DNA of 48,202 bases from positions 1 through 48,202 of the forward strand of contig JARRNO010000001.1 of NCBI GenBank assembly GCA_037384885.1, written 5' to 3'. The notes beneath the pieces are model-generated. The model had not been told where the DNA came from, did not search any database, and was given only the letters and a program-made list of their open reading frames with translations. The translations under genes and the position numbers were made by a program. The DNA comes from Acidobacteriota bacterium (GTDB lineage: Bacteria > Acidobacteriota > UBA4820 > DSQY01). Below, piece after piece: positions 2,918 to 17,027 of this stretch (positions within the stretch are counted from its first letter, which is position 1; each line of letters starts with the position of its first letter).

Positions 2918-3949
2918 TCAGGAATCCATCCTGAGCACTTCCGCGCCCCTGAGATGTCCCGCCTTCATGTCCAGAAGCGCCTGGTTTGCATCCGCCAGGG
3001 GATACTCTGTCACTTCGGGCTCGATCGGGATCTCGGCGGCCAGTTCTAAAAACTCCGTCACATCTTTGCGGGAGACGTTTGCCACGCTCTTGATTTCCTT
3101 CTCCATCCAGAGATGCTGCGGATAGTCGAGATTGAGCAGGTATGCCTTGTCGGCGTCCTCTTTACGGATGGCGTTGATCACCAGCCGGCCCCCTGCGTCC
3201 AGATTCTTGAGCGCGTCCACGACCGGCTTCCAGACGGGAGTGGTATCCACGATTGCATCCAGCTTTTCCGGAGACTCCGCTTCGGAGGGGCCGGCCCATT
3301 CCGCACCAAGCTCCATGGCGAAAGCCCTTTCCTTCTCACTGCGAGCAAAGACGTAGATCCGCGTTTCAGGCCAGCGGCGGCGCGCCATGGCAAGCATGAG
3401 ATGCCCCGAAGCGCCGAAGCCCGTCAGGCCAAGCGCTGCGCCGTTGGCGATCCCGGCCAGATTCAAGCTGCGGTACCCAATGGCCCCGGCGCAGAGAAGG
3501 GGCGCGGCCTGCGCGTCGGAGAATGTCTCGGGAATGGGATAGACGAAATCCTCCGGCACGACCATGTATTCCGCATATCCGCCGTTTGCATCCCGGCCGG
3601 TGGCCCGGAACTCGGGGCAGAGGTTTTCGTTCCCGCTCCTGCAGAACTTGCAGCGGCCGCAGGACGAAAACACCCACGCGACGCCGACCCTCGATCCCTC
3701 GGCGTGCCGGTGGGTTCCCGGACCGGTTTTGACAACCCGGCCCACGGCTTGGTGACCGAGAACAAGCGGCAGCGACGCGGGTGGGGTCCGGCCCTCGATT
3801 TCATCGAGTTCGGTGTGACAGACGCCGCACGTGGAAACGCGGACCAGCACCTCTCCGCTCTCGGGTTCGGGAATGGGAAGGTCCCCCAAATGGAGAGGAG
3901 ACGGATTGTCCCTCAGGGCGCCCAGTTCGCTCAGGATCATTGCTTTCAT
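2918..3949 (-). CDS. Zinc-dependent alcohol dehydrogenase (MDR superfamily)
   Basis: Start MKAMIL at 3949 with AGGGAG 8 nt upstream. Contains GVCHTELDEIEG, GHQAVGRV, the structural-Zn cysteine cluster CGRCKFCRSGNENLC, and the Rossmann motif GLTGFGASGH. Confidence 0.85.
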   Translation of the reverse strand: MKAMILSELGALRDNPSPLHLGDLPIPEPESGEVLVRVSTCGVCHTELDEIEGRTPPASLPLVLGHQAVGRVVKTGPGTHRHAEGSRVGVAWVFSSCGRCKFCRSGNENLCPEFRATGRDANGGYAEYMVVPEDFVYPIPETFSDAQAAPLLCAGAIGYRSLNLAGIANGAALGLTGFGASGHLMLAMARRRWPETRIYVFARSEKERAFAMELGAEWAGPSEAESPEKLDAIVDTTPVWKPVVDALKNLDAGGRLVINAIRKEDADKAYLLNLDYPQHLWMEKEIKSVANVSRKDVTEFLELAAEIPIEPEVTEYPLADANQALLDMKAGHLRGAEVLRMDS

Positions 3950-4112
3950 GGCCGTACTCCCTGGTTGGGGCCGGACCCAAAGGTCCGGGCGAATCATAAG
4001 AAGCAGCAATCCCCTCTTGTTTCAGTATAAACCCACAAGCTGAGACGCGTCTTTCCGTCGCGTGCCGCGCCGGGTGAGGCCATGGGAGATTTTCGCCGGG
4101 AGGAAGGGGATG

Positions 4113-4655
4113 TCAATTCGTAGCCGCAGCGCCCGGAGCATCCGGAGGAAGAGGTTTCTTGAACAGCCCGAGCTGCCGGAAGGCCGCCATGTTGTCCCAG
4201 GTCACCCACGTCTCTGCGATCTTCCCTTCTTTGAGCCGGTGGATACCCGACATGTCCAGGCGCATGGCCCGGTCCGTCGGCTGGAAGTCACCCAGCGGCC
4301 CCCGCTGTGTGCCGTGATAGACAGCCAGGAACGCGACGTAATCCCCTTCCGCCACCAGCCGGACCACCTCGATTTTCCTGTCCGGAAACGTTCTTTTGTC
4401 CGCCTCGAGAAACTCCTTGAAGGCGGTCAGGCTGTCCACGACCAGATCCGGCGTAGCCTGGCAGTGCCGGACATAATCCGTCCTTATCAAGGCGTCGAGG
4501 GCCGCAAGGTCGTTCCGGTTGACCGACTCGAACATTTCGGCGACGACATCCCTGTTCCGCGTTTCCGTCCCCGCAGGCCCCCGGCAGGTGCTCAAGAGGA
4601 GCAGCGCCGGCAGAAGCCCGAACGCCACCATCCACTCCCAACCCTTTCTTGTCAT
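4113..4655 (-). CDS. SnoaL-like / predicted ester cyclase lipoprotein
   Basis: Signal peptide ending LLLLSTC. The body (NRDVVAEMFESVNRNDLAALDALI..DYVRH...) resembles SnoaL polyketide-cyclase-like proteins. SD GGGAGAG lies upstream of the ATG. Confidence 0.65.
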   Translation of the reverse strand: MTRKGWEWMVAFGLLPALLLLSTCRGPAGTETRNRDVVAEMFESVNRNDLAALDALIRTDYVRHCQATPDLVVDSLTAFKEFLEADKRTFPDRKIEVVRLVAEGDYVAFLAVYHGTQRGPLGDFQPTDRAMRLDMSGIHRLKEGKIAETWVTWDNMAAFRQLGLFKKPLPPDAPGAAATN

Positions 4656-4756
4656 GGCATCTCTCCCGTGCGGGATTTTTTTGAGAATCCCCAGTTTCTC
4701 CTGCTATCAATGTAAGACTCGCCGGGAAGCTCCGCAAGAAGGACGCCCATCTGCAA

Positions 4757-7700
4757 TCACACGGCGCGCCTGGCTCCTTCGCCGTCTCTCCGGAGCCCCT
4801 GCAGGCCCCTGTGAACGACGACCCCCCGAATCGCCCAGGCGCGGTCCGCCGTGACCGTCAGCCCTCCGCGGTTGTTCTCGGCCTTCCCCTCGACCACCAG
4901 GGGTTTTCCGCGCGTGAGCAGCTGGCCGAAACGCCGGAAGGCATCTGGAAAGAGTACCAGTTCGGACAGCCCCGTGGGGTCCTCCAGTGTCGCGAAAGCC
5001 ATCCCTTCCCGGTGTCTGCGTGTGACAATCCGTTTGTTGGTGATCACCTGTCCCCACACCCGGACCCGCCGGCCGGCGCAGCCGGAAAGATCTTTCGCAT
5101 GAACATATCCCCTCGCCTCCGCCCATCCCAGAAGAGGCGCAAGGGGGTGCGCCGTGACGCAGTAGCCGAGCGTACGACGTTCTCCCGCCAGCACCTCCGC
5201 CAGGCTCAGGGGCCGTCCGGGATCGTCCGAGCGCTTCGCCTCGCGCCCCCAGGCGGCCGCCATTCGCGCGGGCCCGGGAGCACCCGGCGGCGGGCCGCAT
5301 GGGACGTAAAGTTCGATCCCGTCCTCAGCATTCGGAGCCGGACGCAGAACCGGGTCCCATCTCACCCGGTCTTCGGCCCGGGCCATCGCCTTGACGTCGC
5401 CCCCAAACGATTGAAGAAGGTACAGCATCATTCCCCGGTGTAATCCAAAACCGTCACAAGCGCCCGCGCGGATCAGAATCTCAAGATCAGCGGGCGCCAC
5501 GTGCGCCCTCAAGCGCGACCATAGGTCCGCCAGGGAGGAGAACGGCCGCTCGCCCCTTTCCTCGTAGAGCCTGTCCAGGACTGCGCGGCGCACTCCCCTC
5601 AGAGTGAGAAAGCCGCAGCGCAGACGCCGGTCCTTTCCGGCAAAATCCTCTTCAGAGGCGTTCACATCCGGGGACAGCACGGCCAACCCCCACCGCCGCG
5701 CCTCTTCCACGTAGGCCGGCGTCCCGTAGAATCCGCCCTGGTTGTTGATAAGCGCCGCGAAAAATTCAGCCGGGTGGTGCGCCTTCAAGTAGGCCACCTG
5801 GTAGGAAAGTTGGGCGAACGATGCGGAATGCGCCTTGCAGAACGCGTAGCCCGCGAAGCTCCGGATCTGCCGCCAGAGCTCTTCCATAACGGCGGGCGCG
5901 ATTCCGCGCTCTCCGCCCCTTTCGAAAAAAGCTCTTTCCAGGCCCGCCATCTCATCGCGGCTCCGATACTTTCCACTCATGGCCCGCCTCAGCAAGTCCG
6001 CTTCCCCCAGCGAAAGCCCGGCGAACTCGTGGGCCACGCGGATCACATCTTCCTGGTAGACCATGACCCCGAACGTATCGCGCAAAATGGGCTCCAGCGC
6101 GGGATGGGCATAGACCGGAGGCTCTTCTCCCAGCCGGCGCGCCACGTAAGCATCCATCATGCCTGACTCGCTTACGCCGGGACGGATGATGGAGGAAACC
6201 GCGGTGAGGTCACGGAAAGTGCGTGTTTTCAGGCGCTGGAGGAGGAGACGCATCCCGGGCGATTCGATGTAAAAGCAGCCCATGGTCTTTCCCTGTTGGA
6301 GAATCGCGTTTGTTGGCGCATCGCCGTAGGCCCGCTCAGGCGGGAAGACAGAAGGAACCGCCCCCGTGTGCCGCTTGACCGCATCCACAGCGTCGATCAG
6401 AACCCCGAGCGAACGGTTGCCCAGCAGGTCGATCTTGACAAGCCCCATTGCCTCCACATCGAACATGTCGGCCTGCGTGACGGCAAGGCCCCGCGCCGAG
6501 CGCTGGAGGCTCAGCCTGCGGGTGAGCGGCTGGGGGGACACCACCACGCCGCCGCAGTGAACGGAGAGGTGGCGCGGAAAGCCGTCGACCCACGAGGCCG
6601 CCCGCAGGATGTCACGCCATGGGTGGTCCCGAAGCGGGGCGCCTCGCCCTGCGGGAGAACACTTCAAGGCCAGGGCAAAGTCCTTGGCCGCCGTGTGGGG
6701 GACGGCTTTCGCCACCAGCCCCAGCTCTTCTTCCGGCACGCCCATGGCCTTACCCACCTCCCGGAAGGCCGAGCGCATGGAAAAGCAGTTGTGCGTGGCG
6801 ATCATGCAAACGTTCGCTTCGCCGTAGGTATCGTAGACATGGCGGATCACCAGATCGCGCTCACGCCATGAAAAATCCAGGTCGATATCGGGCGGATTCC
6901 TCCGCTCCGGATTCAGAAAGCGCTCGAAATACAGCCCCTCCTTCACAGGATCCACGTGCGTAAGCCCGAGGCAGTAAGACACGAGGCTGGACGCACCGGA
7001 CCCTCTTCCGATGTTGGGGATGCCTTCCCGCCTGGCGAAGCGGGCGATATCTTCCACCACCAGGAAATAACCCGCAAACCCCATCCTGGAAATCACGTCG
7101 ATCTCATTCTCCAGCCGCCGGAGATATGCCGTCGTTACGTTGTTCACCCTACGGGCCAGGCCCGCGTAAGACAGCGCGGAAAGTCGTGATCCAGCCGTCT
7201 CTCCGGGCGGCAGCGGCGGGGCGGGAAGCTGCCAGTTCCCCAGGGGCAGTTCCACGTTGCATGCGGCGGCCAGATCCGCCGCGGCTTCCAGGGCCCCGGG
7301 GCGGGAGGCGAACCGCGCCTTCATTTGCTCCGGAGAAAGAAGGTAGTCGCCGGGCGCGCTTTCCGGCGGCCGGTGCTTGGCGGCGCGGAGAATGCGGTGA
7401 ATGACATATCCACCGGGATCGCAGAAGGCCGCCGTGGGCGCCGCCAGGACGGGGAGACCGAGCCATTCGGCCACGGCGCAGGCCTCCCCGTCTCCTTCGC
7501 GGTCCCGGCCCGTCAGCCGGGCATAGAGCCGCCCCTTTTGGGCGCCCGCTTTTTTCAAGCGGTAGAGCAGCTTGCGCCCGGAAGCCGCCAGCGCCACATG
7601 TCCTCCCGCCGTGGCGGCGGCCGCCTCTCCGGCGCGGTCGAACCGGCCGGGTTCGAGCTGCCGGCGGGTGATCAGCCCGCACAACCGCGAATAACCTTCG

Positions 7701-7960
7701 AAATCGAGAGCAAACGCGAAGAGGCGGCCGCTCCCGGGACGCACCCCTTCCGGAGACGTCAACTCCACGCCGAGAATGGGCTTGAGATTCGCCCGCTTCG
7801 CCAGGTTGTAAAAACGGACCGCCGCATAGAGCCCGTCGCGGTCGCACAATCCCGCCGCACCATACCCCTTCGCCGCGGCCTGCTCCACAAGGCCTTCCAC
7901 GCTCATGGCGCCGGAATAGAAGGTATAGGCGGTGCGGTTGACCAGCGGTACGGCGGACAT
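4757..7960 (-). CDS. dnaE2: Error-prone DNA polymerase III alpha-subunit paralogue (DnaE2 / ImuC type)
   Basis: 1067 aa. Pol III alpha core motifs GRGSGASSLVSYCLGLT and FERFLNPERRNPPDIDLDF. The N-terminal PHP region is degenerate, without the HxH motif. C-terminal OB fold. AGGAG lies 7 nt upstream of the ATG. Confidence 0.85.
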   Translation of the reverse strand: MSAVPLVNRTAYTFYSGAMSVEGLVEQAAAKGYGAAGLCDRDGLYAAVRFYNLAKRANLKPILGVELTSPEGVRPGSGRLFAFALDFEGYSRLCGLITRRQLEPGRFDRAGEAAAATAGGHVALAASGRKLLYRLKKAGAQKGRLYARLTGRDREGDGEACAVAEWLGLPVLAAPTAAFCDPGGYVIHRILRAAKHRPPESAPGDYLLSPEQMKARFASRPGALEAAADLAAACNVELPLGNWQLPAPPLPPGETAGSRLSALSYAGLARRVNNVTTAYLRRLENEIDVISRMGFAGYFLVVEDIARFARREGIPNIGRGSGASSLVSYCLGLTHVDPVKEGLYFERFLNPERRNPPDIDLDFSWRERDLVIRHVYDTYGEANVCMIATHNCFSMRSAFREVGKAMGVPEEELGLVAKAVPHTAAKDFALALKCSPAGRGAPLRDHPWRDILRAASWVDGFPRHLSVHCGGVVVSPQPLTRRLSLQRSARGLAVTQADMFDVEAMGLVKIDLLGNRSLGVLIDAVDAVKRHTGAVPSVFPPERAYGDAPTNAILQQGKTMGCFYIESPGMRLLLQRLKTRTFRDLTAVSSIIRPGVSESGMMDAYVARRLGEEPPVYAHPALEPILRDTFGVMVYQEDVIRVAHEFAGLSLGEADLLRRAMSGKYRSRDEMAGLERAFFERGGERGIAPAVMEELWRQIRSFAGYAFCKAHSASFAQLSYQVAYLKAHHPAEFFAALINNQGGFYGTPAYVEEARRWGLAVLSPDVNASEEDFAGKDRRLRCGFLTLRGVRRAVLDRLYEERGERPFSSLADLWSRLRAHVAPADLEILIRAGACDGFGLHRGMMLYLLQSFGGDVKAMARAEDRVRWDPVLRPAPNAEDGIELYVPCGPPPGAPGPARMAAAWGREAKRSDDPGRPLSLAEVLAGERRTLGYCVTAHPLAPLLGWAEARGYVHAKDLSGCAGRRVRVWGQVITNKRIVTRRHREGMAFATLEDPTGLSELVLFPDAFRRFGQLLTRGKPLVVEGKAENNRGGLTVTADRAWAIRGVVVHRGLQGLRRDGEGARRAV

Positions 7961-7972
7961 GAATAAACTCCT

Positions 7973-7996
7973 TCAAGGAATGGGAATAGCGCGCAT
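7973..7996 (-). other. 7-codon upstream ORF (MRAIPIP*) in the dnaE2 leader
   Basis: Its ATG, with SD GAGGATAG, is part of the module duplicated from the S24 repressor gene. The stop TGA is followed directly by AGGAG and the dnaE2 ATG 12 nt later. Whether it is translated is unproven. Confidence 0.35.
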
Positions 7997-8015
7997 GACT
8001 ATCCTCTAACCACAA

Positions 8016-8044
8016 AATATAGTCATTTATGACCATTTTTTCAA
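8016..8044 (-). promoter_or_regulatory. dnaE2 promoter with overlapping palindromic operator
   Basis: The minus strand reads TTGAAA-17 nt-TATATT. The spacer and -10 contain TGGTCATAAATGACTA (core GTCATNNATGAC at 8022-8033). It aligns without gaps to 14345-14373. Confidence 0.6.
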
Positions 8045-8078
8045 GTAAAAAAGAGGGCGGAGACAACCCCGCCCGCTC
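8045..8078 (-). terminator. Rho-independent terminator of the S8 protease gene
   Basis: The minus strand reads GGGCGG-8 nt loop-CCGCCC followed by TCTTTTTTAC. It lies about 80 nt after the stop at 8155. Confidence 0.7.
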
Positions 8079-8154: not shown

Positions 8155-10743
8155 CTACCAGCTCAAAACCACGTCGTTCCCCTGTTTCTGGACGTGGAGC
8201 GTACTGTTTCTCCCGACGCGATAGAAGTAGAGCGTGCTGTTTCCCGCGGCCCCGCTGTCGGTATAGTTGGTGCCCACAACACCCTGCAGCGCCGCCAGAT
8301 TGCTCGGATCCGTTCCGCGGTAAACCAACCCTCCGATCGCGGAAAAGGAGCTGTCCAGCGTCAGCTTGCCAAATCCCCAGAGGTCGTTCGGTGTGGTCCC
8401 TGTAAAGCTGTCCGACCGGGCGCCGTTCTGAAGGTCGTTGCGCACTTCTCCCAGCGTCAGCGTCGGATCGGCGCCCAGGAGAATGGCCGCCGCCCCCGCC
8501 ACCTGGGGCGAACTGAAGCTGGTCCCTTCCATGGCAATGTGCTGGTCGGGCGGCGATTCCTGGACGATGTAGTTCTGAGCCGAACCGGTATAAAAGCTGC
8601 TGGGAAGCTGGCTGGAGAGCGTCGTCACGACCGCTTCACCGGGTGCGGTGATGTTGGGCTTCTGGTCAGTCACGAGGGAGTTGCCCTCGGCGACGCCCCG
8701 CAGCGGCCCGTGCGAGGAATAAGAGGCCAGGTCGTCCAGCGTCTCGCTCGTCGATTGCGTGGTTCCGGTGCTGTCCACCCAGGACGTCCTGCTCGTGTAG
8801 GCGCCCACAGCGATCACGTTGTGCGCCGCCGCGGGCCCGTTGATGAGCATGGCGTCGTCGCCGCCGAGATACCGGTTGATGCAGTCATTCGTCTCCGAGG
8901 CGAAATATCCGTAATACCAGGTTGGAATGTAGCCGTCCAGACGCGCTCCCGACCCGGCGCCGCCGTCCTCCCGGAACTGAAGCACGATGGGGATCGGGTA
9001 GCCGCTTCCGTCGGTCTGGTAGAGATCGCCCCCGAAGTTGCGCGACTCCCGGGTCGTGGCGTAATCATATGCGACGTAGATGTACTGCAGGCTGGAATTG
9101 CTGTAGTACGTCATGGGCTTTTCAAACTCGAGATAGACACCGATCTGGTTCGACGTGGAAGACGTCGTGATGTCACCCACGAAGGAGTCGTATTGGTTTT
9201 GGCCGTGCGTATCGCGGCTAAAAGAATAAATCCCGTCATTCCCGGCGCTTACATTCACCCAACCCGTTGTCGTATAGCCCCATTGCCAGGTTTTGCCGCC
9301 GTCGCTGCTCGAAGCGTATGGAATCCAGGCGTTGACCTGTATGTTGGCCGATGCGGGCGCGTAAAATTCCATGTACATGGGTTCGCCCTGGTAGCCGCTG
9401 CCGTTCCAGTTGTAGGAATAGGCCACCACGTTGGTGTCGTCCGTGTTGTACCCGGTGAGCCGGCTCGCCTCCTGGCAAATCGGCCCGCCGGCGTGCATGT
9501 TGTTGCCGCTGTCGTTTCCGGCGGCGGCCGAAAGGGAGACGCCCTGCGTCCCGTCCCCCACGCCCAGCGTGTTGTCGATGTAGTAGGACAGTTCGTCGCT
9601 GCCGTCATGCGGGCCCCAGCCGTTACCGAAGCTCATATTGATGGAGACCGGCTTGTTGAGGCTCTGCGCTGTGCTGATGATCCACTGCAGCGCGTCTTCA
9701 ATGTGCGCATCCGTCAGGTCCGACTTCACGAGAATAATACCGGCCTGATCGGCCTGGCCGTCATAAACGCCTCCGGTGGAAAGGCCGTTGCCCGCGCCCA
9801 CGCCGCTCGTCGCCGTCCCGTGTCCCCAATCTGTGGAATTGCTGTCGGCTTCGGCGCAGGCACTGTTGTTGATGTCCTGGGCCGTCCAGAGCGTTCCGTA
9901 GCCGAATCCCGAAGGCCCCGGCCCCGTGCTGTCGGTCTGGTCCCAGATGTAAAGGATGCGCGTCGTGCCGTCGGGGTTCTTGAAATCGGCGCTGCTCCAG
10001 TCGATTCCCGTGTCGATCCCCGCGTAAATGGCGTTCTTGCCGTGATAGCCCCATTGGTTGTGGACGATGTCCGTATGCGTTTCCGGCAGCGACTTGTCCA
10101 TCATGGGATGGTTGATGAACGGGGCTCTGACGTTTTTGACGTCCGGATCGGCAAGAAGCGCTCTCACGTTCGCCACGGGCACCACCATGAAGGTGCGCGG
10201 CTGCATGGCGAACTCCTTCCCCACGATTCTTGCGCCGTGCGCTTTCGCCACGAGTGGAAGGACGCCCGGCGACGACGCGGTCACCACAACGCCAATCCCC
10301 AGCTGCCCGCCGATGTTTTCAAAGCGGAAAACACGCCCGGGCCGCTGAACTCCTTCCGCCCCAGTCTTCAGGCGGACCAGCCCCGCATCCTTCAGGCGAG
10401 AGGGATTGATGCGCGACAACCGCGGCACGCTCTTTTTCAGACCTTCGGGCGGTCGCTTGAGCTTCAGCGTCGCCTTGTCGATCTTGAGCGGCATATTCCG
10501 CGCGCAGAACAACATGCCCAACCTCGGCCCCAGCTTGGCGGCGTCCTTTTGCGGCAGCGGGTTTGTTTTTAGGGACTCTCTGGCTTCGCTCAGCGCCTGG
10601 TTCAGCGCCTGCGAATCCGGCGGCGCCGCCCCCGCCGCCAGCCCGGCAGACAGCAAGAGGCCCACCAGTCCAGCCGCAAACAGCAGCCGCGCCGCCCCGG
10701 CGCCCTTCCCGACGTTACAGATTGTTTTCAAATGTGCCCTCAT
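8155..10743 (-). CDS. Secreted subtilisin-like serine protease (peptidase S8) with long N- and C-terminal extensions
   Basis: Signal peptide present. The catalytic triad appears in context: GIDTGIDWSSADF (Asp), WGHGTATSGVGAG (His) and MEGTSFSSPQVAGAAAILLG (Ser). Confidence 0.85.
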   Translation of the reverse strand: MRAHLKTICNVGKGAGAARLLFAAGLVGLLLSAGLAAGAAPPDSQALNQALSEARESLKTNPLPQKDAAKLGPRLGMLFCARNMPLKIDKATLKLKRPPEGLKKSVPRLSRINPSRLKDAGLVRLKTGAEGVQRPGRVFRFENIGGQLGIGVVVTASSPGVLPLVAKAHGARIVGKEFAMQPRTFMVVPVANVRALLADPDVKNVRAPFINHPMMDKSLPETHTDIVHNQWGYHGKNAIYAGIDTGIDWSSADFKNPDGTTRILYIWDQTDSTGPGPSGFGYGTLWTAQDINNSACAEADSNSTDWGHGTATSGVGAGNGLSTGGVYDGQADQAGIILVKSDLTDAHIEDALQWIISTAQSLNKPVSINMSFGNGWGPHDGSDELSYYIDNTLGVGDGTQGVSLSAAAGNDSGNNMHAGGPICQEASRLTGYNTDDTNVVAYSYNWNGSGYQGEPMYMEFYAPASANIQVNAWIPYASSSDGGKTWQWGYTTTGWVNVSAGNDGIYSFSRDTHGQNQYDSFVGDITTSSTSNQIGVYLEFEKPMTYYSNSSLQYIYVAYDYATTRESRNFGGDLYQTDGSGYPIPIVLQFREDGGAGSGARLDGYIPTWYYGYFASETNDCINRYLGGDDAMLINGPAAAHNVIAVGAYTSRTSWVDSTGTTQSTSETLDDLASYSSHGPLRGVAEGNSLVTDQKPNITAPGEAVVTTLSSQLPSSFYTGSAQNYIVQESPPDQHIAMEGTSFSSPQVAGAAAILLGADPTLTLGEVRNDLQNGARSDSFTGTTPNDLWGFGKLTLDSSFSAIGGLVYRGTDPSNLAALQGVVGTNYTDSGAAGNSTLYFYRVGRNSTLHVQKQGNDVVLSW

Positions 10744-11078: not shown

Positions 11079-11648
11079 TCAACGCTTACAAAACTTCAGG
11101 AATCGCTTATGCAGGCGATTGTCTCCTGTCAATTCGGGATGGAAGCTTGACGCCCACATCCTGTCCTGGCTCACGAACACCGGCGCGTCTTCGCAGCGCG
11201 CGAGAACCCGGACACCGTCTCCCAACGGTTCGAGAATCGGCGCCCTGATGAAGACGGCGTGAAAAGGCGTGTCGAAATCTTCGATATCCAGAAATTCCTC
11301 GAAGGAGTCCACCTGCCGTCCGAAGGCGTTGCGGCGGACGCAGATGTCCATCAGTCCCAGCCGCTTTTGCGCCGAACCCTCAATTTCGCGAGCGATCCAG
11401 ATCGCGCCGGCGCAGGTCCCCCACACTGCAAGTTCACCGCTGTCATAGCGCTCCTTGACGGCCTGGTCCACGCCGTATTCCGCGGCCAGCTTACCGATGG
11501 TGGTCGATTCCCCGCCGGGAACGATCAGTCCGGACAGCCCTTTCAGGTGCTCCGGAAGACGGACTTCCGCCACGACAGCACCGAGGCTTTGCAACATTCT
11601 CCGGTGCTCACGGAAGTCACCTTGCAGTGCGAGTACACCGATCTCCAT
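11079..11648 (-). CDS. pdxT: Pyridoxal 5'-phosphate synthase, glutaminase subunit
   Basis: MEIGVLALQGDFREH, PGGESTT and catalytic GTCAG. I chose the start at 11648 by homology. An alternative GTG at 11687 overlaps the pdxS stop. Confidence 0.9.
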   Translation of the reverse strand: MEIGVLALQGDFREHRRMLQSLGAVVAEVRLPEHLKGLSGLIVPGGESTTIGKLAAEYGVDQAVKERYDSGELAVWGTCAGAIWIAREIEGSAQKRLGLMDICVRRNAFGRQVDSFEEFLDIEDFDTPFHAVFIRAPILEPLGDGVRVLARCEDAPVFVSQDRMWASSFHPELTGDNRLHKRFLKFCKR

Positions 11649-11683
11649 CTCCGCCCCGAAAAAGCACGCCGGCCCGGCGGGCC

Positions 11684-12565
11684 TCACCAGCCCCGCTTGG
11701 CCATCCGCTCGCTCTCATCCAGTGTGTCCAAGTTGATACCGACCATGGGCTCACCGAGGTTCTCGCTGATTTCCGCCAGGATAGCCGGATCATTGTAATG
11801 AGTCACGGCTCTCACGATCGCCGCCGCCCGCTTTTGCGGATCTCCTGATTTAAAAATGCCCGACCCAACGAAGACGCCGTCCAGACCGAGGTGCATCATG
11901 AGAGCGGCGTCGGCGGGCGTCGCCACCCCGCCTGCCGCGAAATTCACCACCGGCAGCGCGCCGTTTTCGTGGACGTAGCGAACCAGGTCGAAGGGGGCGT
12001 TGATTTGCTTGGCGGCGTCCATCAGCTCGTCGCCGCGCAACCCTTCCAGCCACCGGATCTGCTTCTGCACGGTTCTCGCGTGCCTCACGGCCTCCACCAC
12101 GTTTCCGGTTCCCGCTTCGCCCTTCGTGCGGATCATCGCGGCCCCTTCCCCCACACGGCGGAGGGCCTCACCGAGATCCCTCGCGCCACAGACAAAGGGG
12201 ACCTTGAACGTCCACTTGTCGATGTGGTGTTCTTCGTCGGCCGGAGTCAGCACTTCGGATTCATCGATAAAATCAACTCCCAGCGCCTCGAGGATCATCG
12301 CTTCCACGAAGTGGCCGATCCTGGCCTTGGCCATGACGGGTATGGATACGGCGTCGATAATTTTCTTAATCACGGTCGGGTCGGACATGCGCGCGACGCC
12401 GCCCTGGACCCGGATATCCGCCGGAACGCGTTCAAGGGCCATGACGGCTGTGGCGCCGGCCTCTTCCGCAACGCGCGCCTGCTCGGGAGTGGTCACATCC
12501 ATGATCACTCCGCCCTTGAACATTTCGGCAAATCCTGTTTTTACGCGTACAGTTCCTTTGTCCAT
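11684..12565 (-). CDS. pdxS: Pyridoxal 5'-phosphate synthase, lyase subunit
   Basis: 293 aa. [44 protein letters not shown] is highly characteristic of PdxS/SNZ. Confidence 0.95.
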
Positions 12566-12817: not shown

Positions 12818-13732
12818 TCAAAACAGCCTGCGCTGGAAAACCGTGTTGCTGACAGTTTCCAGGTCCGGATAGGCGTCGATAAGACCTTCCGGAACCTGCT
12901 GCCGCTCACCCGTCAACGCGAATTGAAACTGGAAGGCGTTTGCGGCCGCCTTCCCGCGGAAATGGTTGTTGAAGATGACAACCACTTCCCGCGCAAGCAC
13001 TGCACCGTCACGGACCCTCTGAACCCAGGGCGCCAATTCCTGCCCCGAGTAGAGGTAGTCGTAGCGCTCGTTCCGGCCCACGCCCTCGCGGAACCAGGCC
13101 GTCGCATTCCTTCCGTGAAGGCGGCAGTACGCAAGATCGGCGGTAGCCACCATTGATGGGCCCAGACACCGCCCAAGATCGGGTTGATCGATGCTGCACA
13201 GGGCTGCTCCATGCTCACGGCACAGCCCGGCGGCCGCTCCGCCTTCCCACGACGCGTGGCGGAGTTCCACCGCCAGGGGGTACACCGAAAATCTCCGGAG
13301 CAGATCGGCCAGGGCGGCCCGGTTCTCCGGCGTGTTTTTGAAGGACCAGGGCCATTGGACCAGGACGGCCGACAGACGGCCGGTGCGGACAAGGGGCTCC
13401 AGTGCGCGATGAAAGGCCCGCTCGTCCACAAGCGAGGCTTTCCGCGTGTGCGTGAAGCCCTGAAAGAGCTTGACCGAAAAGCGAAATCCCGGTCTGCCGT
13501 CGATCCTTCTCGCCCATTCGGCCGTCCGAATCGGATCCGGTATGCGGTAAAAGCTGCTGTCCACCTCGAGGACCTGGAAGCGTTCGGCCAGAAAGGATAA
13601 CGGATCGAACGCTCTACCCGCCTTCATGGGGTAGACGGTTCCCTTCCAATCCGGGTAGGACCACCCCGCCGTACCGATCCGAATGTTGGATGAAAGGCCG
13701 CGTTCGACGGCGGCGTCCGTCATGATTGGCAT
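12818..13732 (-). CDS. DUF72 (YecE-like, TIM-barrel) family protein
   Basis: The motif IRIGTAGWSYPDWKGTVYP and the overall length are typical of DUF72. The ATG is 2 nt after the stop of the S24 repressor gene. Confidence 0.85.
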   Translation of the reverse strand: MPIMTDAAVERGLSSNIRIGTAGWSYPDWKGTVYPMKAGRAFDPLSFLAERFQVLEVDSSFYRIPDPIRTAEWARRIDGRPGFRFSVKLFQGFTHTRKASLVDERAFHRALEPLVRTGRLSAVLVQWPWSFKNTPENRAALADLLRRFSVYPLAVELRHASWEGGAAAGLCREHGAALCSIDQPDLGRCLGPSMVATADLAYCRLHGRNATAWFREGVGRNERYDYLYSGQELAPWVQRVRDGAVLAREVVVIFNNHFRGKAAANAFQFQFALTGERQQVPEGLIDAYPDLETVSNTVFQRRLF

Positions 13733-13734
13733 GG

Positions 13735-14325
13735 CTACCTTTCCTTGCTCCAGACGACCTTGTAAGCGAAGCGCACCTCTTCGGGGGGCACCACCACGGG
13801 ATCGTAAAGCGTATTGACCGACTCGAGAACAACCATTCCGCCGGCCTCCCTGTACCGCTTGATATATTTTTCGCCGTTCGTCAGGCCCACCACGGCGTAA
13901 TCACCGCTGACAGGGCGCTTACGCGTATCAACGAGAACCACCTGCCCCTTCTCATACTTGGGCGTCATGCTGTCGCCGGAGACCTCCACCGCAAAGCCGT
14001 GGGGATCGGTAAAACTGGGCGGCCGTTCGACGAAGTACATCCCCCCGCCCGCCGGATATCCCTGGTCGGTGAATTCCACGCCGGGGCCCGCTGAAACGAA
14101 TGCGACCACTGGGATTTCCGCTGGGATGGACAGGTTGTCCGCCAGAACGGACACTCGCACGTCAAGGGCCTGGGCGATAGCTTCGAGCGACTTCAGCGAA
14201 GGTGTGATCCGGCCCTTCTCGATCCGGGCGAAATTGGGCGGACTCCACCCAAGCCGCCTCGCCACTTCAGCCTGGGACAGCCCAAGCGATTCGCGCACCA
14301 CCCTGATCCGCTCGCCATAGTTCAT
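13735..14325 (-). CDS. XRE-type HTH / peptidase S24 (LexA- or CI-like) self-cleaving repressor
   Basis: N-terminal HTH_3 (RESLGLSQAEVARRLGWSPPNFARIEKG). Linker contains an Ala-Gly dipeptide (VSAGPG). S24 catalytic Ser in GDSMTP and Lys in KYIKRY. Confidence 0.85.
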   Translation of the reverse strand: MNYGERIRVVRESLGLSQAEVARRLGWSPPNFARIEKGRITPSLKSLEAIAQALDVRVSVLADNLSIPAEIPVVAFVSAGPGVEFTDQGYPAGGGMYFVERPPSFTDPHGFAVEVSGDSMTPKYEKGQVVLVDTRKRPVSGDYAVVGLTNGEKYIKRYREAGGMVVLESVNTLYDPVVVPPEEVRFAYKVVWSKER

Positions 14326-14344
14326 GACTATCCTCCACGTCTAC

Positions 14345-14373
14345 AATATAGTCATATATGACCACTACGTCAA
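14345..14373 (-). promoter_or_regulatory. Promoter of the S24 repressor gene with overlapping palindromic operator
   Basis: The minus strand reads TTGACG-17 nt-TATATT. A perfect 12-bp palindrome GTCATATATGAC (14351-14362) sits within TGGTCATATATGACTA. SD GGAGGA lies 5 nt before the ATG. Confidence 0.65.
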
Positions 14374-14456
14374 GCGCGGCGTCCCGGAACGGCATTCCTG
14401 CGCACAACTTACCCGCCGAAGACGACAGCCGGCGCGAAATAGAAGGCAAGCGCCGG

Positions 14457-16696
14457 CTAACGGTCCTCCCCGGGGGGCCTGTCGAGAACCTCCCGGACCT
14501 TTCTGGCCAGTGCGTCGATCCCGTATGGTTTGGGCAGGAAGTCGAAGTTTTCTTTTTTGACAAAGCCTTCGTGGACCAGGTTTTCCGTATACCCGGATGA
14601 AAAAAGGAAGCGGCACGGGCGCCCCATAGCCCTAACGCTTTCGAAAAGCTCCTTGCCGCCCATCATGGGCATAATCACATCCGTGATCACGAGGTCTACC
14701 TCCTCGGCATCCTCTTTAAGATGCGCCAGGGCGTCGGCGCCGTTCTCGGCTTCAAGAACCCGGTACCCCAGACGAAGAAGCGCTTCCACAAGGACCATCC
14801 GAACCTCACGCTCGTCTTCAACGACCAGGATGGTTTCGTGCCCTGGCATCACCGGCGGCTCGATCTTTGTGCCGACACGGGCGGCGCGTCTTGAGACGAT
14901 GGGGAGATAAACCTTGATCGTCGTCCCCTCCCCCGCTTCGCTGTATGCCCGGATCATGCCCTCATGCTGTTGAATGATGCCGTACGCCGTCGAGAGTCCG
15001 AGGCCCGAGCCCACATCCGGAGCCTTGGTGCTGAAGAAGGGTTCGAACACGTGCGGCAGAACGTCCTTCGGCATCCCCACCCCGCTGTCCGAAACGGAAA
15101 GCAGGACATAGCGGCCGGGACGGGCCCAGGGATGCGACTTGAGATAGGAGCCGTTGATCACCACGTTTTCGGTTTCGATAGGATAATCCGCTCGAGGAGC
15201 GGCAGGAACTCGCGAATCACCTGGTTGAGGTTCAGATCCACCGGTTCGATCACCTGCCGGCGTGCAAAGGCGAGGAGAGCGCGGGTCAGCGCGGCCGCCT
15301 TGTCCGCCATCCTGGCGATCACTTCCAGTTCATTCCGCTCGGGCGCGCGGGCAGGCAGCGTCTTCAAGGCAAACTCCACCGATCCCATGATGGCGACAAG
15401 AATGTTGTTGAAATCGTGGGCGATCCCTCCGGCAAGCTGGCCGATGGACTCCATCCGCTGGGATTCCGCCAAATGATCCTGCAGCTGCCGCTCCCTCGTC
15501 ACATCCCGGCAGACGGCCACGTAATGCGGGAGCATTCCCTCCGATTCCCTCACGGGATAAACATCGGCTGAGACTTCAACGAGCCGCCCGCCCTTTTGAC
15601 GGCTCACCACGTTGCCGCGCCAAACGTCACCCCGCTGCAATGTTTCGACAAGGTTCTCATAGAACGCGTCATCATCTTCGGCGCTCTTTAGAATGTCCGC
15701 CTTCTTCCCCACGAGTTCCGACGCTTTGTATCCCGAAAGCCTCTCGAAGGCCGCATTCGCAAAGATGATCAATCCGGCTCCGTCGGTCATGAGGAACGCG
15801 TCCGAGCTTTGCTCCAGCGCCCGGCTCAGGAGGGTTCTTTCCCGGTCCAGCTGCTTGCGGTCCCCCACATCCCTCAGCACGACCTGCCTTGCATCCACGC
15901 CTTCATATAGGAAAGGGCTGGACACAGCCTCCACCATCACCTTTCCACCATCGCTCCTGATGACGGTCAGCTCGAGCTTACGGGCCGCCCGTCCGCTTTT
16001 CTGTATCTGCTTGACACGCTCATGGTCCTCTGGAACGAGAAAGTCGAGGACGCTGCGTTCCAGCACTTCCGCTTCTTCCGAAGCACCCAGTATCCCGATC
16101 CCGGCGGCATTCACAAAAAGGATGATACCCTGCGCGTCATGCACAAACACCGCGTCGGGCATCATCTCCACGAGATGTCGGTAGCGCGTCTCGCTTTGCT
16201 CGTGAGCATGCCTCGCGCGCCGCGCTTCTTCATCTTGCATCTGCAGTTTGTCCGCAAGGGCATCCAGGGCCTTGGACGCAGCGGACCACCTTCCCGCGAG
16301 GCTCACCGCTCCCATTCGCGAACCGTAGTCTCCTTGGAACAGGCGCCGGCAAGCCGATTCCATATCCATCAGCCTGCGATTGGTCCGTCGCCGGTCCAGA
16401 AACCAAAAGCCGCCGATCAGGAGCACCAGTGCGGCCCCCAAGTACCCCAGCCAAGCCGCCTCCCTATGGTTCCGACGCTGCTCCTGGACAGGCCCGGAGA
16501 AGAAGCACGCCTTCATGATCCTCGGCCCCCGAGGAGCATGCACTGCTGCGGGCCTGGTGTCGTGGCGGCTTTTCGCGCGGGAAACGGCCGAAGGCCACGT
16601 TCCAATGGCCAGTGCGAGCCAGAACAGCGCGGCGCACAAGGCCGGAAGACGGCGGTAACGGCTCTGGTGTAGAGATTGACTCCATGCTTTCAGCAT
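14457..16696 (-). pseudogene. Hybrid sensor histidine kinase (2 TM, 2 PAS, HisKA, HATPase_c, REC) disrupted by an internal deletion and frameshift
   Basis: The upstream piece (15158..16696) ends ...LNQVIREFLPLLERIILSKPKTW*. The downstream piece (14457 to about 15182) resumes in another frame at IETENVVINGSYLKSHP...SDSGVGM...GSGLGL, followed by a receiver domain. The H-box AHDFNNIL and the G1/G2 boxes are present, but the segment that should hold the N-box is absent. Confidence 0.65.
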
Positions 16697-16950
16697 TTTC
16701 CCCCCGCGCACGCCGCCCTCTGTTGATGCGTCACGAATGCGGACGGTCTGCAAAAGACACCCCGGCCCGAAGGCGCGTCGGGACCGAACTTTCCATGGAT
16801 CGTTTTTTGGGAAGAGACAAGGGAAAAGGAGGCGGCAGAGGCGTCTCCATGATCGGATACACGCCGACACCAGCCTCCTGTCAAGGTCTGGCAGAGCGGT
16901 CGGCCTCGGAAGGCCGTGGGCGCCGCAGTTCGAGCGGCGCCTCGACAGCT

Positions 16951-16964
16951 TGTTTTCACGGTTC
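16951..16964 (+). repeat. 14-nt direct repeat, copy 1 (TGTTTTCACGGTTC)
   Basis: An exact copy recurs at 17028-17041 in the same 565-bp divergent intergenic region. Confidence 0.8.
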
Positions 16965-17027
16965 TTCCACAATCACCCTTTTTGAAAGCTCCGCGCGCCT
17001 GCCCGCGGCGGCGGGAGGTCTACCTTC

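Follow-up and report, generated by a model that had tools for sequence, protein, structure and literature searches.

Matching promoter blocks precede a repressor operon and a polymerase gene

In a 48,202-nucleotide stretch from an Acidobacteriota bacterium (GenBank assembly GCA_037384885.1, contig JARRNO010000001.1; hereinafter the window), we analyzed a locus, also present in GCA_037384925.1, in which genes for a predicted CI-like repressor, a DUF72 protein, and a C-family DNA polymerase are associated with two copies of a candidate operator. All three genes lie on the minus strand. The repressor gene (13735–14325) codes for a 196-amino-acid protein that combines an XRE-type helix-turn-helix (HTH; residues 3–62) with an S24 peptidase domain (residues 70–194) and is 100% identical to an NCBI protein from an Acidobacteriota metagenome-assembled genome annotated as 'helix-turn-helix transcriptional regulator'. 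The DUF72 gene (12818–13732) encodes a 304-amino-acid TIM-barrel protein of the PF01904 family, a predicted DNA-damage endonuclease; as it starts just 2 nucleotides past the stop codon of the repressor gene, we take the two to be co-transcribed. The third gene (4757–7960) codes for a DnaE2-type polymerase of 1067 amino acids with PHP, Pol3 core, HhH2, and OB domains, the C-terminal domain being absent.

A promoter scan recovered a sigma-70-type promoter, TTGACG-17-TATATT, spanning 14373..14345 on the minus strand 5′ of the repressor gene, with the −35 element at 14368–14373 (TTGAC being kept in all orthologues) and the −10 element at 14345–14350 (likewise conserved in orthologues). The same scan placed a promoter of this type, TTGAAA-17-TATATT, at 8016–8044 on the same strand, 5′ of the polymerase gene. 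At both promoters, a 16-bp operator candidate of the form TGGTCA-N4-TGACTA occupies the spacer between the −35 and −10 elements and overlaps the latter by 2 nucleotides: TGGTCA-TATA-TGACTA (TGGTCATATATGACTA) at 14349–14364 (minus strand) before the repressor gene, and TGGTCA-TAAA-TGACTA (TGGTCATAAATGACTA) at 8020–8035 (minus strand) before the polymerase gene. The blocks that enclose them (14323–14374 and 7994–8045) align without gaps and are identical at 40 of 52 positions, compared with 27/52 for the next best 52-mer in the window and a chance-level 9–16/52 for the flanking 52-nucleotide blocks. This identity is limited to three islands, namely the −35 element, the operator together with the −10 element, and GAGGATAGTCATG. 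The 48-kb window has no further match to the 16-mer operator at up to three mismatches (chance expectation 0.05), and 0 of 100 shuffles reached the observed count.

These results bear out a first-pass annotation, made from the letters of the window, which had described the TTGACG-17-TATATT promoter, a near-palindrome filling its spacer and running into the −10 element, a half-site at the start codon, and the gapless alignment of the two blocks with their islands of identity. It had also judged the operator to differ from known LexA boxes, and neither promoter contains any of those that it named (GTTC-N7-GTTC, GAAC-N4-GTTC, CTGT-N8-ACAG). The LexA motifs of Geobacter, Bdellovibrio, Verrucomicrobia, and Xanthomonas, the two Bacteroidetes motifs, the Francisella motif, and the Deinococcus RDRM are equally missing from both promoters.

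The half-site in question, TAGTCA, lies 18 nucleotides downstream of the operator in each block. At the repressor promoter (14325–14330, minus strand) it is oriented as the left operator half and overlaps the start codon, with the Shine-Dalgarno (SD) sequence GGAGG at 14332–14336 (minus strand). At the polymerase promoter (7996–8001, minus strand) it likewise overlaps an ATG. Here the SD and ATG, copied from the repressor gene, open a seven-codon upstream open reading frame (uORF; MRAIPIP*; 7973–7996, minus strand), the stop codon of which adjoins the SD of the polymerase gene itself (AGGAG; 7968–7972, minus strand). We considered and rejected a conserved leader peptide, since the seven-codon uORF differs or is absent in other genomes. 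With the peptide not conserved and the ATG lost in several genomes, the uORF is probably a relic of promoter duplication; it could still influence translation of the polymerase.

On the plus strand, both copies (14324–14352 and 7995–8023) additionally display a weak promoter, ATGACT-17-TATAGT, with 9 of 12 matches. It is probably a by-product of the palindromic arrangement; downstream of it there is no suitably placed gene.

The repressor resembles lambda CI

Searches with the Pfam profiles matched the repressor to HTH_3 (E-value 8e-13), HTH_31 (1.5e-14), HTH_19, and Peptidase_S24 (2e-18), and detected no LexA_DNA_bind domain (PF01726) in it. The TIGR00498 model for LexA scored 30.5 bits against a cut-off of 110.95, and its match was confined to the C-terminal part. 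The protein thus has an XRE HTH in place of the N-terminal winged helix of canonical LexA, as the first-pass annotation had proposed, and the combination of HTH_3 with Peptidase_S24 that it expected of a profile search was recovered. The three sequence marks of S24 self-cleavage that it had pointed out are also present: a serine in the motif GDSM (Ser119), a lysine in IKRY (Lys156), and an Ala-Gly pair in the linker (VSAG; Ala79-Gly80). Across 28 homologous sequences, Ser119 is invariant, and Lys156 and Ala79-Gly80 are conserved in at least 90%. In an alignment with lambda CI (3bdn), Ala79-Gly80, Ser119, and Lys156 correspond to Ala111-Gly112, Ser149, and Lys192, respectively. We accordingly predict Ala79-Gly80 to be the cleavage site and Ser119/Lys156 the catalytic dyad.

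The AlphaFold model of the repressor (pLDDT 85) displays a five-helix XRE fold at the N-terminus. Its top match in the PDB is the C-terminal domain of lambda CI on the RecA filament (8gmu; TM-score 0.82), followed by full-length CI and then by LexA. The N-terminal domain resembles DdrO of Deinococcus, to which its HTH has the closest likeness, and the controllers of restriction-modification systems such as C.AhdI (structure match). The conserved residues, together with the structural likeness to the CI–RecA and LexA–RecA complexes, suggest that self-cleavage of the repressor would be stimulated by RecA filaments on single-stranded DNA (ssDNA; hereinafter RecA*).

The nearest viral relative in IMG/VR is 37% identical over the full length and is encoded between an integrase gene and divergent replication genes; two further distant relatives also lie in prophage-like regions. 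Compared with the LexA proteins of related polymerase cassettes, the repressor shows only 27–30% identity, and this only within the S24 domain. On the basis of its CI-like structure, its prophage relatives, and this low, S24-restricted identity to LexA, we interpret the repressor as a co-opted CI-type protein, one that by sequence and modeled structure is lambda-CI-like in both fold and ancestry and has prophage repressors as its closest outside relatives. The same figures led us to reject a LexA with an exchanged N-terminus: the S24 domain is just 27–30% identical to those of the cassette LexAs, versus 37% along the full length for the prophage repressor. The fusion of an XRE/CI-type HTH to an S24 domain is the architecture of CI-type cellular SOS regulators. 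Homologues of the repressor fall into 88 clusters, most of them at 59–80% identity, and all those with an organism name are from Acidobacteriota. The gene is chromosomal, outside prophage, and vertically conserved, its synteny with DUF72 being kept at 59–80% identity in differing neighborhoods. A role in a defense system was considered and rejected, as the match returned by PADLOC was to a generic HTH only.

Conservation of the operator across Acidobacteriota

We fetched orthologous loci for five diverged repressor groups and then scanned 185,579 species genomes with the stringent pattern TTGA-N5-TGGTCA-N4-TGACTATA. This returned 52 matches, 16 of them in 11 genomes of Acidobacteriota/Thermoanaerobaculia, and every one of these 16 lies directly 5′ of either the repressor-DUF72 pair or the polymerase gene. 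A relaxed scan of the Acidobacteriota loci (98 kb) added two polymerase-promoter sites and yielded no site with zero or one mismatch away from the cassette promoters. With the window included, we thus recovered 25 independent promoters (16 repressor and 9 polymerase) in approximately 15 Acidobacteriota genomes, with the operator in the same position between the −35 and −10 elements throughout. By sequence, therefore, the palindrome stands both in the promoter of the repressor gene itself (16 candidate binding sites) and in that of a translesion-type polymerase gene (9 candidate sites). A comparison of a 14-base operator pattern with viral contigs was uninformative, there being only single, chance-like hits among the matches listed.

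Column by column, the 25 promoters are conserved at 88–100% in TTGA, 92–100% in TGGTCA, and 88–100% in TGACTATATT, and at 32–56% in the four central bases and 28–48% in the surrounding sequence. One genome (L009) has GTCAC-AC-GTGAC, a symmetric double change by which the palindrome is kept, and the operator of its polymerase gene also reads GTGAC. Conservation of the two hexamers coupled with a symmetric change is the pattern of a site predicted to bind a dimeric HTH protein and is unlike a normal promoter spacer. The proposal of the first-pass annotation, namely an autoregulated, non-canonical LexA-like repressor with an operator in common with the polymerase gene, hence gains strong support from comparative genomics through the 16 + 9 promoters.

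The auxiliary half-sites recur along with the operator. A GTCA core is found 35–37 nucleotides from the start of the operator in 17 of the 25 promoters, including polymerase promoters without the ATG; in repressor promoters, this downstream half-site overlaps the start codon. Upstream, five of the nine polymerase promoters (L006, L140, L150, L151, and L152) have a TGAC core 24–25 nucleotides away, and three related repressor promoters (L167, L183, and L184) have a GTCA at −25/−26, 5′ of the −35 element. Upstream and downstream half-sites combined give the mirror-symmetric arrangement TGAC-22-GTCA-4-TGAC-22-GTCA. By analogy with phage operators, they probably help further dimers to bind cooperatively. 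In the polymerase promoter of the window, the place of the upstream half-site of other polymerase promoters is taken by an intrinsic terminator (8046–8074, minus strand; an 8-bp GC-rich stem followed by a T run), which ends the preceding subtilase gene directly 5′ of the promoter.

The cassette occurs both whole and split. In L010 and L011, where the repressor is 59% identical to that of the window, the repressor, DUF72, and polymerase genes adjoin or overlap one another, with a single operator in front. In the window and eight other loci (L006, L007, L009, L138, L140, L150, L151, and L152), the polymerase gene stands apart with its own copy of the promoter and operator. Unrelated genes part it from the repressor-DUF72 pair in such split loci; in the window, these are pdxS (11684–12565), pdxT (11079–11687), and a gene for an S8 subtilase (8155–10743), all on the minus strand. 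Several polymerase promoter copies retain, in decayed form, the SD/start region that stems from the repressor gene (GGATAGTCA.. and similar), even after loss of the ATG, from which we conclude that the regulatory unit was carried along or copied whole when the cassette split. Wherever an orthologous locus has downstream sequence, the repressor gene is followed by DUF72, except at a stand-alone homologue (P0080; 53% identical). Beyond what the first-pass annotation had noted, DUF72 is hence a conserved third member, and in some lineages the cassette is a three-gene operon. The clade with the cassette is a group of soil Acidobacteriota, including Thermoanaerobaculia. The anatomy of the cassette, its conservation, its synteny, and the homology of its members are observed directly in these genomes.

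The locus of a 53%-identical repressor homologue (L186, 3280–3322) has neither a DUF72 nor a polymerase gene adjoining. It has TAGTCA-ATTT-TGACAC between a −35 and a −10 element and GGTCATG where translation starts, which dates both the GTCA-N4-TGAC core and the half-site at the start codon to before the sampled cassette clade.

Outside the Acidobacteriota, a look-alike site was found 5′ of genes coding for TetR-family proteins (~210–245 amino acids, with the motif GKGTFYRHF) in Planctomycetota and, in a few cases, other phyla (L137, L141, L146, L153–L155, L158, L163, L164, L168, L169, L171–L173, L176, and L179). Here, the arrangement is TTGAC-N4-TGGTCA-N4-TGACTATA-T(G/A)GTCA, and the start codon lies only ~9–11 nucleotides past the −10 element, a short distance that suggests leaderless, autoregulated TetR transcripts. 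We had considered the Planctomycetota matches as a wider spread of the cassette and rejected this, for they are TetR-family autoregulatory sites instead.

The polymerase and DUF72 proteins

The polymerase retains the catalytic motifs DIDLDF and KIDLLG. The metal-binding histidines of its PHP domain are replaced by NRT (VPLVNRTAYTFYSGA), a feature conserved across the clade, and no QxxLF clamp motif is present in the protein. Lack of the C-terminal domain, lack of QxxLF, and loss of the PHP histidines are all DnaE2-like traits (PMC3919608). Its orthologues, down to 47% identity, are located in the repressor-DUF72-polymerase cassette. The next relatives, at 40–45% identity, come from several phyla, and the genes for all four of those that we looked up (P0189, P0169, P0135, and P0122) are directly preceded by a canonical lexA and a gene for a DinB-like Y-family polymerase. 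From these relatives in lexA-PolY-dnaE2 operons, it follows that the Acidobacteriota cassette corresponds to such a unit in which two of the parts have been exchanged. Based on its architecture and these relatives, the label dnaE2 appears reasonable. The polymerase would be a spare, probably error-prone enzyme. Of the two associations expected of a DnaE2, the S24 repressor is present, and the Y-family/ImuB partner is not: no Y-family, ImuA, or ImuB gene was found within the cassette at any locus examined, DUF72 occupying that position.

In one of the lexA-PolY-dnaE cassettes (L193 of Methylomirabilia, 3877–6876), a RhuM-family gene, an unknown gene, and a DDE transposase gene lie between the Y-family gene and dnaE, making it another mutagenesis cassette that has been split by insertions.

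The widespread DUF72 family, to which E. coli YecE belongs and for which three structures have been solved, has no proven function. The DUF72 protein of the window matches PF01904 with 184 bits (E-value 4e-54; cut-off 25.3 bits) and is homologous to the solved TIM-barrel members TM1631 (1vpq; E-value 6e-40) and 1vpy (E-value 5e-27). The family has been predicted to comprise EndoIV/UVDE-like endonucleases (PMC3828134) and is enriched beside polB2 translesion operons (PMC11791011), and DnaE2 is reported to fill excision-repair gaps in Caulobacter (PMC8102061). The library that we searched returned no literature pairing DUF72 with dnaE2. Given the predicted endonuclease activity and the gap filling by DnaE2, an 'incise and fill' partnership between DUF72 and the polymerase is plausible by analogy, as a pure hypothesis. 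A fuller version would have the two form a hitherto unrecognized two-enzyme damage module, with UVDE/EndoIV-like incision by DUF72 and gap filling or bypass by the polymerase without ImuB or a Y-family partner, under a CI-type repressor that has displaced LexA as the sole SOS-type regulator; we advance this very tentatively and consider it rather doubtful.

A predicted damage-inducible cassette and the alternatives to it

Taken together, the locus is likely to be a self-contained, DNA-damage-inducible repair/mutagenesis cassette, in which a CI-type repressor controls both its own operon and the polymerase gene via a shared operator; we give this reading a probability of about 0.7. In such a cassette, a dimer of the repressor would bind TGGTCA-N4-TGACTA in both promoters and, given the overlap of the operator with the −10 element, would exclude RNA polymerase. 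One promoter copy would drive the repressor-DUF72 operon, resulting in autoregulation, and the second would drive the polymerase gene. Upon DNA damage, RecA-ssDNA filaments would induce the repressor to cleave itself at Ala79-Gly80 via Ser119/Lys156, parting the HTH from the dimerization domain and freeing both promoters. Expression of the repressor-DUF72 operon and of the polymerase would follow, with fresh repressor resetting the system. In evolutionary terms, the CI-type repressor would have displaced LexA, and DUF72 would have taken the place of the Y-family partner. We infer DNA binding, repression, damage induction, and RecA dependence from sequence.

Several observations weigh against this reading. 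The stringent scan required the −35 element and part of the −10 element, which biases it toward copies of one promoter; tied to that context, it would miss operators in other contexts. The same hexamers serve unrelated TetR-family genes in Planctomycetota, and the motif is therefore not unique to the repressor. The polymerase scores below the cut-offs of both relevant NCBIfam models (DnaE1: 685 vs 1002; error-prone DNA polymerase: 604 vs 939); the dnaE2 label of the first-pass annotation has its support in the architecture and in the relatives in lexA-PolY-dnaE2 operons. Finally, DnaE2 normally requires ImuB, yet the cassette is without it.

Among the rival explanations, one accepts binding of the operator by the repressor and attributes its release to something other than RecA*, such as a dedicated protease (as in DdrO/IrrE), a ligand, or slow constitutive self-cleavage, in response to a non-SOS stress. 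It draws on the likeness of the N-terminal HTH to Deinococcus DdrO and on the existence of LexA-independent XRE regulators of dnaE2, for example, M. xanthus DdiA (bioRxiv 10.1101/2025.02.19.639066). DdrO, however, is without an S24 domain, whereas the repressor has a complete one with the conserved Ala-Gly, Ser, and Lys; moreover, in structure it comes closest to CI bound to RecA, and no gene for an IrrE-like metalloprotease adjoins it in any locus examined. We hence regard a different trigger as unlikely. An origin in phage raises the further question of whether the protein is simply the immunity repressor of a prophage or its remnant, with an incidental link to the polymerase. The JGI annotation as 'phage repressor protein C' and the placement of distant relatives (25–37% identity) in prophage immunity regions with integrase, terminase, and divergent early genes would fit this. 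Yet phage genes are absent from the window and from all orthologous loci examined, where DUF72, the polymerase, and housekeeping genes are the neighbors; the trio persists in lineages with repressors only 59% identical; and no IMG/VR relative is closer than 37% identity, which together make an immunity repressor the most improbable of the explanations weighed here.

Two others concern the palindrome itself. It might be bound by a different factor encoded elsewhere, for instance, one of the TetR type, with the S24 protein regulating something else, as TGGTCA-N4-TGACTATA-TGGTCA is present in the promoters of the TetR-family genes themselves in Planctomycetota and, in a few cases, other phyla. 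In those cases, however, the regulator is the product of the gene just 3′ of the site, and the same logic points to the S24 protein in Acidobacteriota, where no TetR gene is near any locus examined and where the site persists 5′ of the S24 gene even at the 53%-identical stand-alone homologue. This makes an outside factor quite improbable. Nor do we see much likelihood, and slightly less here, in the two blocks being a duplicated strong promoter, conserved for its promoter and translation signals and with no repressor in the spacer. The shared block does contain the −35 and −10 elements, SD, and ATG, all of them expression signals, and the relic start codon at the polymerase copy is typical of a copied fragment. 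Against this, the spacer between −35 and −10 elements is normally not conserved, whereas here two hexamers in it are 92–100% conserved over 25 promoters with the 4 nucleotides between them free to vary. The hexamers form an inverted repeat, which one genome has altered by a symmetric double change, and the auxiliary half-sites keep fixed mirror-image distances even where the ATG is gone.

Relationship to known SOS-type systems

SOS-like networks under the control of CI-type S24 repressors are known from Bacteroidetes (Sanchez-Osuna et al., 2021, PMC8565304) and, with FddR as the repressor, from Francisella (Perez-Varela et al., 2026, PMC13148647). With CI-type S24 damage regulators already established in these two, the Acidobacteriota cassette is no new principle; what appears to be new is the phylum, the operator, and the composition of the cassette, with DUF72 in place of the Y-family partner beside a DnaE2-type polymerase.

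Like the non-canonical LexA of Bacteroidetes (PMC8565304), the repressor is a chromosomal S24 peptidase with a CI/XRE-type N-terminus rather than a winged helix, and, as predicted here from sequence, would share with it autoregulation via a short palindrome, error-prone polymerase targets, and the proposed origin from a phage repressor. It differs in coming from Acidobacteriota and in scale: the Bacteroidetes proteins command a broad SOS regulon (recA, umuDC, dinB, uvr, and others) validated by electrophoretic mobility shift assays and expression, whereas two sequence-based promoters per genome are known for the Acidobacteriota cassette. With FddR (PMC13148647) it has in common the co-option of a phage-type S24 repressor that would govern its own gene and a few beside it, the whole making up a small, self-contained unit of damage response. 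FddR, however, binds GTG-N11-CAC and acts on divergent neighbors, whereas the Acidobacteriota repressor has a co-directional operon and a second promoter copy, with a C-family polymerase among its predicted targets.

The lexA-(imuA/imuB-C)-imuB/PolY-dnaE2 cassettes (Erill et al., 2006; Timinskas and Venclovas, 2019, PMC6511836) likewise have an S24 repressor first and a DnaE2-type polymerase without a C-terminal domain last, may be contiguous or split with the operator kept by the split parts, and contain polymerases 40–45% identical to that of Acidobacteriota. Unlike in these, the repressor is not a LexA (27–30% identity, S24 domain only), and DUF72 occupies the middle position with no Y-family, ImuA, or ImuB-C component in the cassette. 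To CI of lambda and other temperate phages, the repressor is similar in its two-domain architecture, predicted cleavage site and catalytic dyad, operator overlapping a promoter, and possible auxiliary sites for cooperative binding. In contrast to lambda CI, its gene is not in a prophage, has no cro or lytic promoter opposite, and is predicted to have cellular DNA-repair genes as targets.

If the cassette functions as predicted, Acidobacteriota would be a further phylum in which mutagenic DNA synthesis is under a phage-type S24 repressor instead of LexA, in support of the view that SOS-like circuits have been repeatedly rebuilt from co-opted phage repressors. TGGTCA-N4-TGACTA offers a new, sharply defined candidate operator that is directly testable. 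The cassette also ties DUF72 consistently, for the first time, to the genomic context of a C-family polymerase with predicted damage regulation, which offers a concrete lead to the function of DUF72. It further poses the problem of how a DnaE2-type enzyme operates in the absence of ImuB. Comparison of split with unsplit cassettes further illustrates how regulation can be retained upon operon breakage, the whole promoter having been copied, start codon included.

Elsewhere in the window, near position 15180 on the minus strand, between the open reading frames 15158..16972 and 14457..15164, the sequence is 136 bp shorter than in L001 and L002, two further assemblies of this organism. The absence of these 136 bp shifts the frame and splits a gene for a hybrid histidine kinase (PAS-HisKA-HATPase-receiver) into these two frames; in L001 the kinase is intact as a single gene of 791 amino acids. 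The difference is either a real deletion or one between assemblies.

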